Positions 14,997-16,831 of a stretch of DNA of 64,000 nucleotides are shown piece after piece. The stretch lies in NCBI GenBank assembly GCA_963726265.1, contig CAVSBQ010000002.1, positions 262,486 through 326,485 on the forward strand, given 5' to 3'. Positions within the stretch are counted from its first letter, which is position 1, and every line of letters begins with the position of its first letter. A program made the position numbers and the translations under genes. The DNA comes from Candidatus Aenigmatarchaeota archaeon (GTDB lineage Archaea; Aenigmatarchaeota; Aenigmatarchaeia; QMZP01; QMZT01). The notes below the pieces were generated by a model. The model made no database searches and had not been told where the DNA came from. It saw only the letters and a program-made list of their open reading frames with translations.

Positions 14997-15701
14997 TCAG
15001 AAAACCTTTTTTATTTTCAGCGTCTCCAGCTCGACTGAAATTATCTTCGCATTGCCCGGGTTGACGCACAGCGTCCTGCCAAGCCTCTGCTTAATGCTGC
15101 CCGACACCTGCGGGGACTCGTGTATGTGGCCGTGCAGCGTGAGGAGCGGCTGCATGTCCTCGATGAATCTCCTCACCGCCTCGCTGCCCCTGTGCTCGCC
15201 GTTGTGGAGCATGTCCAGCTCCGTCCCGAGAGGCGGCGCGTGGAAGACGAACATTGTCCTGCACATGTCAAGCCTGGCGGACATTGCCCTGAGCTCCCTG
15301 TAAATCTCATCCTCCGTTTTTTCCCAGTCCTTGAGCAGGAACGGCGTCGGGTTTATGTAGGGGTAGCCCGCGATGGCGAAACCATCGAGTCTGCAGGATT
15401 TCCTGTGCAGCAGCAGCGCGCTCTTGAGCTTGTCCGCCTTCCTGAGCATGGGGGAATTCGAGGAGAAGTCGTCGTTGCCCATCATGATGAATACCGGTTT
15501 TTTCACCTGCTTCCTGAACTCGCGCAGTCGCGGCAGCAGGTAGAACTGCAGGAAGAACTTCTGGCCGCTGGGGTTGATGCCCGTCGTGATGTCGCCGCCG
15601 AACACGATGAAGTCGATGTCCCTCGCTTTCGCCAGCTCGAACATCGTCTCGTATACCTTCACAGTTCCATGGACGTCCGTCACGTAGAGGAATTTGGTCA
15701 T
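14997..15701 (-). CDS. Calcineurin-like metallophosphoesterase
   Basis: Motifs DVHG, GGD, GNDD, FHAPP and HGHIHE occur in canonical order. Confidence 0.85.
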   Translation of the reverse strand: MTKFLYVTDVHGTVKVYETMFELAKARDIDFIVFGGDITTGINPSGQKFFLQFYLLPRLREFRKQVKKPVFIMMGNDDFSSNSPMLRKADKLKSALLLHRKSCRLDGFAIAGYPYINPTPFLLKDWEKTEDEIYRELRAMSARLDMCRTMFVFHAPPLGTELDMLHNGEHRGSEAVRRFIEDMQPLLTLHGHIHESPQVSGSIKQRLGRTLCVNPGNAKIISVELETLKIKKVF

Positions 15702-15727
15702 AGAATCATCACTTGATTTAATCTTAG

Positions 15728-15837
15728 TGGACTCGTCGGGAGTTTCAAACGGACGCAGATGAAATCTGCGTCTTGCGCCTTTGAACCCGAGGCCTCTCGG
15801 ATGCGAGCCGAGCGCTCTACCACTGAGCTACGAGCCC
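15728..15837 (-). tRNA. tRNA-Ala(CGC) with a 38-nt intron in the T-loop
   Basis: Minus strand: acceptor GGGCTCG/CGAGTCC with G3:U70; D-arm GCTCAGTGGTAGAGC; anticodon arm CTCGG-CTCGCAT-CCGAG. The T-stem TCGGG/CCCGA encloses 45 nt instead of 7. 72 nt after intron removal. CCA is not encoded. Confidence 0.85.
15742..15779 (-). other. Putative tRNA-Ala intron at about position 59/60
   Basis: Removal restores T-loop TTCAAAT. The intron has a perfect 9-bp hairpin GACGCAGAT-TTC-ATCTGCGTC and a TTTGAA segment complementary to exon TTCAAA. Confidence 0.65.
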
Positions 15838-15863
15838 GTGTCGAACATTATCTTATTATTCAG

Positions 15864-15872
15864 TATATATAA
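15864..15872. promoter_or_regulatory. TATATATAA box in the divergent tRNA-Ala / 3'-phosphoesterase intergenic region
   Basis: Centred about 31 nt upstream of tRNA-Ala position 1 on the minus strand. Confidence 0.45.
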
Positions 15873-15880
15873 CTTAAAAT

Positions 15881-16246
15881 ATGCCCATATTCGTCGTCCA
15901 CGAGCATCATGCGAAACACCTGCACTGGGACCTGCGCTTAGAGATGAACGGCGTGCTGAAATCTTTCGCCGTTCCGAAGGAGCCGCCACTCGAGACGGGA
16001 GTCAAGCGCCTCGCCATCCAGGTCGAGGACCACGACCTCGAATACGGCAAGTTCGAAGGCAGGATTGCGGAAGGGTATGGCGCGGGCGAAGTGAAAATCT
16101 GGGACACCGGGCCTCTGGAGATAATAAGCAGGAAGCCGGAGAAAATCGTTTTCAAGGCTGGCGGCAAAAAGATGCGCGGCGAATACGTGCTGCTGAAGTT
16201 CAGGAAGGCCGGCGAAAAGGAATGGCTGCTTTTCAAGAAAGGCTGA
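15881..16246 (+). CDS. Stand-alone LigD-type 3'-phosphoesterase (PE) domain protein
   Basis: FVVHEHHAKHLHWDLRLE...LKSFAVPKEPP...RLAIQVEDHDLEYGKFEGRI..GYGAGEVKIWD matches the LigD PE domain signature. 121 aa. Confidence 0.85.
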   Translation: MPIFVVHEHHAKHLHWDLRLEMNGVLKSFAVPKEPPLETGVKRLAIQVEDHDLEYGKFEGRIAEGYGAGEVKIWDTGPLEIISRKPEKIVFKAGGKKMRGEYVLLKFRKAGEKEWLLFKKG

Positions 16247-16294
16247 TTCTCCCCAGCCAACCCTATTTTAATCACCTCTGTAAAATATTTTCTT

Positions 16295-16831
16295 ATGATT
16301 GACCTTTACACGTTCGTCGAGGCCGTCTGGCTCATCTGGCCGGCGTACGGGGCGAATGGCCTATGCATGCTCGCGCGTGGGAAGCGGGCCATCGACGGCG
16401 GCCGCATGTGGCGGGGCAAACAGATTTTCGGGCCTGGAAAGACGTGGGAAGGCCTCGTTCTCGGCGTGGTTGTCGCGACGCTGGTCGCGACGTTCCAGAT
16501 GCTCGTCGCGCCGTTTCTGCCGTGGAATCTTTCGCCCGTCCCGCTTGATATTGTTATCATGACGCCTCTGCTCGGCTTCCTGATGGGCCTAGGCGCGATG
16601 CTCGGGGACATAGGAGGCTCGTTCATCAAAAGGCGGTTTGGCATCGCGAGAGGGAAGCCCGCCCCTCTTCTGGACCAGCTCGACTTCATAATTGGAATGC
16701 TGGTTTTCGCTAGCCTTGTGGTCGCGTTCAAATGGGAATGGGCGGTGATAATGCTGGTGATGACACCGATAATCCATCTGACAGCGAACTTCGTGGCGTA
16801 TCTGCTCAAGCTCAAGAACGTGCCTTACTAA
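16295..16831 (+). CDS. carS: CDP-archaeol synthase
   Basis: WPAYGANG, GPGKTWEG and GSFIKRRFGI..GKPAPLLDQLDF blocks are typical of CarS (DUF46). Multi-TM, 178 aa. Confidence 0.85.
   Translation: MIDLYTFVEAVWLIWPAYGANGLCMLARGKRAIDGGRMWRGKQIFGPGKTWEGLVLGVVVATLVATFQMLVAPFLPWNLSPVPLDIVIMTPLLGFLMGLGAMLGDIGGSFIKRRFGIARGKPAPLLDQLDFIIGMLVFASLVVAFKWEWAVIMLVMTPIIHLTANFVAYLLKLKNVPY

Follow-up and report, generated by a model that had tools for sequence, protein, structure and literature searches.

Introns located in the T-loop of archaeal tRNAs are known from ARMAN-2 (Candidatus Micrarchaeum acidiphilum), whose pre-tRNA-Cys(GCA) carries a 13-nt intron at position 59/60 within a relaxed hBH motif (Fujishima et al. 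2011, NAR; PMC3239211), a 59/60 substrate that the epsilon2 splicing endonuclease (EndA) of this organism cuts in vitro (PMC3239211). The pre-tRNA-Pro(GGG) of ARMAN-2 contains T-loop introns at both 53/54 and 59/60 (PMC3239211, Figure 1C), and interrupted genes account for 56% of its tRNA genes (PMC3239211). The ARMAN-2 EndA has Y236, H251 and K282 as its catalytic triad, together with broad specificity and an ARMAN-type specific loop bearing the lysine K161 (PMC3488258), and this loop and its lysine confer cleavage of the relaxed T-loop substrate (Hirata et al. 2012; PMC3488258). Regarding the spread of introns among tRNA genes, PMC4090602 and PMC4033280 summarise the work of Fujishima et al. 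(2010, Mol Biol Evol 27:2233) on Thermoproteales, in which transposed tRNA introns are near-identical across isoacceptors and positions. T-loop or DPANN cases are not mentioned in a 2026 preprint on Asgard tRNA introns.

The locus presented here lies on the minus strand of the window (the whole stretch of DNA that was analysed, 64,000 nt) and corresponds to G000:C2:278213-278322 in assembly coordinates. It is read as a functional tRNA-Ala(CGC) gene that contains an intron, from a small Micrarchaeota-like (DPANN) archaeon, a reading to which a probability of roughly 90% is given. In the following list of its parts, G002 is the genome of a relative from the same genus, MFE stands for minimum free energy and BHB for bulge-helix-bulge.

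15728-15837, minus strand: whole tRNA-Ala(CGC) gene, with a precursor body of 110 nt and a mature body of 72 nt, as given by the cloverleaf, the fold and the ARAGORN call on the spliced form.
15780-15837, minus strand: 5' exon, tRNA positions 1-59, 98% identical to the G002 ortholog over 58 nt.
15742-15779, minus strand: intron of 38 nt between positions 59 and 60; its excision restores the cloverleaf, and precisely this stretch is missing from the syntenic G002 gene.
15728-15741, minus strand: 3' exon, composed of U60, CCCGA, CGAGUCC (with U70) and A73, as read from the sequence, the G002 ortholog and ARAGORN on the spliced form.
15782-15785, minus strand: exon strand of the central BHB helix, U54 U55 C56 A57, with 4 of 4 pairs to intron UGAA.
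15744-15747, minus strand: intron strand of the central BHB helix, UGAA, intron nt 33-36, from the MFE fold and the alignments.
15741-15743, minus strand: 3' splice-site bulge A-C-U60, a 3-nt bulge of the MFE fold that separates the central helix from the T-stem; the cut is placed after its second base.
15779-15781, minus strand: 5' splice-site region A58-A59-G, relaxed, with the cut placed before G, the first intron base.
15752-15772, minus strand: 9-bp hairpin cassette GACGCAGAU-UUC-AUCUGCGUC within the intron; all of its cells pair across 10 family members.
15864-15872, minus strand: TATA-like box UUAUAUAUA, 27-35 nt upstream of G1, read from the sequence.

The initial annotation, made from the letters of the DNA, had proposed a tRNA-Ala(CGC) with canonical arms, a G3:U70 pair and a 38-nt T-loop intron at 59/60, and every one of these elements was found on the minus strand. 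The acceptor arm pairs GGGCUCG with CGAGUCC, including G3:U70, with A73 as the discriminator and UA after its 5' strand. Then come the D-arm GCUC-AGUGGUA-GAGC and a G, the anticodon arm CUCGG-CUCGCAU-CCGAG, in which the anticodon CGC occupies 15803-15805, and the variable region AGGCC. The T-stem UCGGG (15786-15790)/CCCGA (15736-15740) encloses 45 nt, as had been claimed. The 5' exon holds the acceptor 5' strand, the D-arm, the anticodon arm, the variable region, the T-stem 5' strand and U54-A59, and CCA is absent from the gene sequence. Upstream of the gene, the AT-rich box is kept in the syntenic alignment with G002 and is likely an archaeal promoter element.

Removal of the 38 nt leaves UUCAAA followed by U, the T-loop TTCAAAT that had been predicted for the excision of 15742-15779. 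This excised form is a cloverleaf, scored 33/33 by an ad hoc scorer and called as tRNA-Ala(cgc) by ARAGORN under default settings. On the unspliced window ARAGORN found no tRNA, and the Rfam tRNA model (RF00005) assigns 38.4 bits to the interrupted gene, covering its 5' two-thirds only and with a local end. The G002 ortholog is an uninterrupted 72-nt tRNA-Ala(CGC) that has the T-loop UUCAAAU and is one D-loop base off the predicted spliced product; it reaches 69.3 bits on the Rfam tRNA model (gathering score 29), a value taken here by proxy as the covariance score of the spliced form, given that both are near-identical. Orthologs were retrieved from 41 related genomes with the 110 nt as BLAST query, their loci were then parsed, and the G002 gene sits at the syntenic locus, both flanks being ~74% identical over 2 kb, including the promoter box and the start of the downstream gene. 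This intronless ortholog from the same genus is regarded as the strongest support for the predicted junction.

The boundary bases of the intron, which ends in ...UUUGAAAC, differ from those of the exons (A59 versus the intron-final C, and the intron-initial G versus U60), and no other pair of cuts yields an identical product. ARAGORN with the option -ps95 was discarded as a means of choosing the junction, since at this lowered threshold it accepts 174 different excisions and cannot fix it; the junction thus rests on BHB geometry and on the orthologs. A second intact tRNA-Ala(CGC) gene, a possibility contemplated in the initial annotation, was looked for and none was found in the 88%-complete assembly, while only one CGC anticodon arm in tRNA context occurs in the whole genome. 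A 'CGC' reading of a tRNA-Tyr gene at C2:839644 proved to be a spurious parse, rejected by ARAGORN.

The intron and tRNA structure at 15728-15837 exceeds chance expectation, the RNAfold MFE of the 110-nt precursor being -47.4 kcal/mol (z = -3.35 versus dinucleotide shuffles). Besides the cloverleaf with its T-stem, the MFE fold shows exon UUCAAA paired with intron UUUGAA, the 3-nt bulge ACU and the hairpin; both the perfect 9-bp hairpin and the TTTGAA segment complementary to exon TTCAAA, anticipated from the DNA letters, are indeed present in the intron. In the MFE fold the central helix grows to 6 bp, since A58 and A59 are able to pair with U31 and U32 of the intron. Alternatively, A58, A59 and the first intron G are bulged opposite one U on the 5' side, in a loop that is closed by G.U, C-G and G-C pairs and then by the hairpin. 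The 6-bp helix of the MFE fold and the location of the 5' splice site outside any pre-formed 3-nt bulge count against the reading favored here.

In canonical BHB introns, as those at 37/38, an outer helix is followed by a 4-bp helix and the cuts occur after the second base of 3-nt bulges, each of which follows the 4-bp helix in the 3' direction of its own strand. When applied to the tRNA-Ala(CGC) precursor, this rule places the 3' cut between C and U60 of the ACU bulge, and the 5' cut between A59 and the intron G. The central helix is kept in 12/12 T-loop introns of the tRNA-Ala genes of relatives, with 4/4 pairs in 10 of them and 3/4 in the other 2, and the geometry of the 3' bulge beside the T-stem is the same in all 12. 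The Ala(CGC) intron lacks the strict hBHBh' arrangement and displays the relaxed hBH one, consisting of the T-stem (h), the bulge AC-U60 (B) and the UUCA/UGAA helix (H), and the label hBH (BHL-like) is used rather than strict hBHBh' because its 5' bulge is relaxed. The BHB-type substrate envisaged initially is supported by the 3-nt 3' bulge and the perfect 4-bp helix, hBH being the more precise label. The paralogous intron of tRNA-Gly(CCC), from the same family, exhibits a clean 3-nt 5' bulge and a strict hBHBh' motif.

Regarding the enzymes, the genome contains one splicing-endonuclease gene (EndA ORF, L001:853-2049), which encodes 398 aa with tRNA_int_endo and tRNA_int_endo_N domains and matches PDB entry 4fz2. 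Its residues 8-398 align to residues 8-387 of 4fz2_A, the ARMAN-2 epsilon2 EndA (E=2e-108), and it covers all three units of the ARMAN-2 enzyme (alphaN, alpha and betaC) as a single polypeptide. The catalytic Tyr, His and Lys lie in conserved contexts (FRIYFPG, EWIHS and KKTF), and the specificity-loop lysine is conserved too, GVYK being aligned to GTYK of ARMAN-2. The genome is therefore predicted, by homology, to encode the EndA type able to cut relaxed motifs, its activity being likewise a prediction. A gene for the RtcB ligase is also present (518 bits). The nearest Atlas clusters for this EndA belong mostly to Microcaldota, as the phylum Micrarchaeota is now called; this affinity may serve as a lead for the lineage, and is not a classification.

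The sequence, the structure, the empty orthologous site and the enzyme genes are all documented, and the following pathway can be proposed from them. An upstream TATA-type promoter would drive the synthesis of a precursor with a 110-nt body, in which the T-stem would fold normally, and U54-A57 would pair with intron UGAA to form the central 4-bp helix of the bulge-helix-bulge. The 3' cut would occur between C and U60 in the canonical 3-nt bulge, between the central helix and the T-stem, and the 5' cut between A59 and G, symmetrically opposite it on the far side of the helix, where the bulge or internal loop is less regular. The closure of this 5' loop by the short G.U/C-G/G-C helix and the 9-bp hairpin would produce the relaxed hBH motif. 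Both cuts would be carried out by the single epsilon2-type EndA of the genome, acting as a broad-specificity homodimer of the three-unit protein, and RtcB would then ligate the exons into a 72-nt tRNA with the T-loop UUCAAAU, to which CCA would be added later. The Ala(CGC) intron is one copy of a hairpin-cassette family whose members interrupt many tRNAs of this archaeal family, be it at 59/60, at 37/38 or within the D-loop. That the tRNA-Ala(CGC) gene is transcribed, its precursor cut at precisely these bonds and its exons ligated is a prediction.

A genome-wide census of intron positions, as the initial annotation had suggested, was carried out by a scan for closure of the acceptor and the T-arm, BHB-filtered excision and cloverleaf scoring, with an ARAGORN check of the spliced forms. 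It parsed 40 tRNA genes, 10 uninterrupted and ~30 interrupted (~75%), although ~9 of these parses, mostly for class II tRNAs, are poor (score <=31 or odd lengths) and their positions unreliable. ARAGORN reports only 14 uninterrupted tRNA genes in the 1.13 Mb, and Rfam gives 27 hits. Six genes were found to carry 59/60 introns, namely Ala CGC (38 nt), Ala UGC (49 nt), Asp GUC (38 nt), Gly CCC (39 nt), Glu CUC (58 nt) and Lys CUU (42 nt); ARAGORN accepts four of the five besides Ala CGC after splicing, the parse of the other intron of Lys CUU not being clean. Introns are also found at 37/38 (the commonest site), in the D-loop, at 12/13, 13/14, 22/23 and 29/30, and in the variable region, and several of the tRNA introns in the genome exceed 100 nt. 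The sole well-formed tRNA-Asp gene found carries a 59/60 intron, which argues that such introns are spliced in the cell.

That both tRNA genes of the window are interrupted, as had been remarked, is true but reflects this genome-wide property (~30/40). The second one, tRNA-Leu(UAA), at 2340-2521 of the window on the minus strand (C2:264825-265006), parses with two introns, of 41 nt in the D-arm region (~22/23) and of 54 nt at 37/38, and its spliced parse attains the full cloverleaf score. Outside the window, G000:C2:184153-184264 (plus strand) holds a perfect tRNA-Gly(CCC) cloverleaf with a 39-nt 59/60 intron of the hairpin family, where ARAGORN by default calls an 'intronless' 75-nt tRNA-Gly(ccc) at 184152-184226 that is without Rfam support and is probably wrong. 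Also outside the window, G000:C2:135736-135845 (plus strand) is a tRNA-Ala(GGC) with a 38-nt variable-region intron (~45/46), which ARAGORN -i mislabels as a tRNA-Leu(taa) with an anticodon-loop intron.

Among the orthologous Ala(CGC) genes of the related genomes, those of G002, G005, G016, G036 and G039 are intronless, those of G003 and G006 have a D-loop intron only, and those of G001, G008, G009, G015, G018, G019, G030 and G033 carry 59/60 introns of unrelated or diverged sequence, of 32-115 nt. The introns of these last 8 relatives each show a 4-bp helix and a 3-nt bulge adjoining the T-stem. In G012 and G017, which belong to another genus, the syntenic Ala(CGC) genes have introns of the hairpin family at 59/60. 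The idea that the intron was gained recently by copying from tRNA-Asp was considered and set aside, since these syntenic genes are filled too, and precise loss in G002 is at least as likely as gain; both filled and empty orthologous sites occur within one genus. An Rfam scan of the loci of 18 relatives missed most of the interrupted tRNAs. An ORF at 14997-15701 (minus strand; ATGACCAAATTCCTC...) starts 27 nt downstream of the 3' end of the tRNA, and it also stands beside tRNA-Ala(CGC) in G002, G012 and G017, which makes this tRNA-gene pair syntenic across genera.

Over 60 nt, the Ala(CGC) T-arm plus intron shares 92% identity with its counterpart in tRNA-Asp(GUC) from the same genome (C2:840711-840821), and the Gly(CCC) intron is a third family member in this genome, its hairpin showing a compensatory change from A-U to G-C. 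Elsewhere in the genome this hairpin recurs in tRNA-Thr(CGU) and tRNA-Ala(UGC), where the intron that contains it is in the D-loop, and in tRNA-Cys, where that intron is at 37/38. The tRNA-Ala(UGC) gene (C2:483565-483724, minus strand) combines its D-loop cassette intron with a 49-nt intron at 59/60, and a cassette-like palindrome, GCAGAA-N5-UUCUGC, is observed just upstream of it (G000:C2:483741-483757). A structure consisting of the T-stem, the 4-bp helix, the 3-bp inner helix and the 9-bp hairpin was evaluated on an alignment of 10 family members at 59/60, which come from 7 genomes and represent several isoacceptors. In this alignment 97.5% of the cells are paired, versus 28-49% when the partners are slid by 1-3 columns, and 7 pairs, 3 of them in the 9-bp hairpin, are changed on both sides, a figure that 0/500 shuffles reach.

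The GAMGCRGRTNNNAYCYGCKTC pattern is present in 1-10 copies per genome in 16/22 sampled genomes of the same taxonomic family, and in 3/14, 1/5 and 0/37 genomes of sister families, while the reversed-pattern control gave 0 hits in all sampled genomes. When 25 cassette copies of relatives were sampled, 13 parsed as tRNA genes and 12 of these contain the cassette inside an intron, either at 59/60 (Glu, Ala CGC twice, Ser, Val), in the D-loop (Ala GGC, Glu, Thr, Arg) or at 37/38 (Lys, Met, Cys); the exception is a G002 tRNA-Leu, where it falls outside the introns chosen by the parser, and the remaining 12/25 give no parse under the two-intron limit. Homologous introns are thus found in non-orthologous tRNA genes and at different tRNA positions, and the distribution of the family across tRNAs, loop positions and genera suggests copying between genes. 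In addition, the stem variant is largely characteristic of each genome: GAU/AUC occurs in all listed copies of the present genome (G000), G004 and G015, and GGU/ACC in G002 and G014, with mixed variants in G012, G017, G018 and G021. Such uniformity within genomes suggests concerted evolution, gene conversion or bursts of copying. We give even odds to the broader idea that the cassette GAMGCRGRU-N3-AYCYGCKUC is actively copied or homogenised among tRNA genes within Micrarchaeota genomes. If this were true, the lineage would provide a clean natural system for the gain, loss and conversion of archaeal tRNA introns, and the cassette stem might be what a protein, or the copying mechanism, recognises.

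The hairpin cassette being a repeated and apparently mobile element, it might have inactivated a dispensable tRNA-Ala(CGC) and left a pseudogene, with GCG codons read by tRNA-Ala(UGC); that gene does exist, and tRNA-Ala(CGC) is not strictly required, because tRNA-Ala(UGC) could in principle read GCG codons. This explanation is nevertheless improbable considering that the exons are 98-100% conserved relative to G002 between flanks of just ~74% identity, that the insertion maintains the exact BHB geometry, and that a cassette at 59/60 is also found in the only well-formed tRNA-Asp and in Gly(CCC), both of which must splice for translation. Moreover, the putative substitute tRNA-Ala(UGC) has a 59/60 intron itself, and the genome encodes the enzyme type known to cut such sites (PMC3239211).

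It also appears quite improbable that the intron is real but has a different junction, for example with both cuts one base earlier, or that it is not excised by EndA. Cuts one base earlier would leave the 7-nt T-loop UUCAACU, which is tRNA-like and is seen in the G005 ortholog, and the poor definition of the 5' bulge would accommodate them; on the contrary, the nearest intronless ortholog, that of G002, has UUCAAAU, the canonical BHB rule places the 3' cut between C and U60, and the same register is kept in 12/12 T-loop introns of the tRNA-Ala genes of relatives. As to excision by means other than EndA, 38 nt are far below the size of a self-splicing group I intron. Group I introns have a catalytic core of more than ~200 nt with P1-P9 and usually interrupt the anticodon loop; the group I reading was rejected on the 38-nt length and the T-loop site, together with the lack of any Rfam intron family match in the window, and a C/D-box guide RNA reading was dropped because the intron has no C box. 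An assembly or chimera artefact, which a metagenome-type assembly of 4 contigs might invite, is extremely improbable: a 951-nt contig (X4) from an independent public run spans 15654-16300 with the intron in place and no intron-skipping joint, and homologous introns occupy the same site in many independently assembled relatives. No intron-skipping contig was reported from four DNA runs, which does not show that intronless alleles are absent, and the other contigs from these runs are mostly short, match the conserved 5' exon alone, and probably derive from other tRNAs and other organisms. The public runs listed as holding the sequence are 8 metagenomes, apparently of DNA and none of RNA, from freshwater sediment, sediment and wetland.

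Since 59/60 hBH introns cut by an epsilon2 EndA were already published for ARMAN-2 in 2011, the functional intron-containing tRNA-Ala(CGC) gene is a well-supported and ordinary case, which adds one more to the small known set of 59/60 T-loop introns from ARMAN-type archaea. What it contributes is a same-genus ortholog with an empty site, a genome in which six introns lie at 59/60 and a hairpin-cassette family, useful as material on how archaeal tRNA introns spread, while knowledge of the splicing mechanism is unchanged. For annotation, standard finders miss the Ala(CGC) gene, and genomes of this lineage will seem to be without tRNA-Ala(CGC) and many other tRNAs unless non-canonical introns are modelled.

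The closest known counterpart of the present intron is that of ARMAN-2 pre-tRNA-Cys, with which it shares the 59/60 T-loop site, the relaxed hBH/BHL motif, an epsilon2 EndA and the same or a close lineage. Unlike it, the gene described here belongs to the Ala CGC isoacceptor, its intron measures 38 rather than 13 nt and contains a conserved 9-bp hairpin, and its splicing is predicted. As with ARMAN-2 pre-tRNA-Pro(GGG), a 59/60 intron occurs in a genome where most tRNA genes are interrupted, at a rate higher here (~75%, 30/40 parsed) than in ARMAN-2 (56%); however, pre-tRNA-Pro has two adjacent T-loop introns with strict hBHBh' motifs, whereas Ala(CGC) has a single intron with a relaxed one. 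As PMC4090602 and PMC4033280 present them, the Thermoproteales families resemble the cassette in being distributed over several tRNAs and sites (in the present genome 59/60 of Ala CGC, Asp GUC and Gly CCC, the D-loop of Thr CGU and Ala UGC, and 37/38 of Cys), and differ from it in their phylum, in their alpha2beta2 rather than epsilon2 enzyme, and in that the present family is defined by a short sequence-conserved hairpin cassette. Because of the irregular 5' bulge, alpha4 or alpha'2 enzymes would probably not cut the Ala(CGC) site (PMC3239211, PMC3488258). Finally, with the canonical 37/38 hBHBh' intron it would share the cleavage chemistry, the logic of the motif and the RtcB ligase, while differing in that it interrupts the T-loop instead of the anticodon loop, the T-stem replaces the anticodon stem as the outer helix, and the 5' bulge is irregular.
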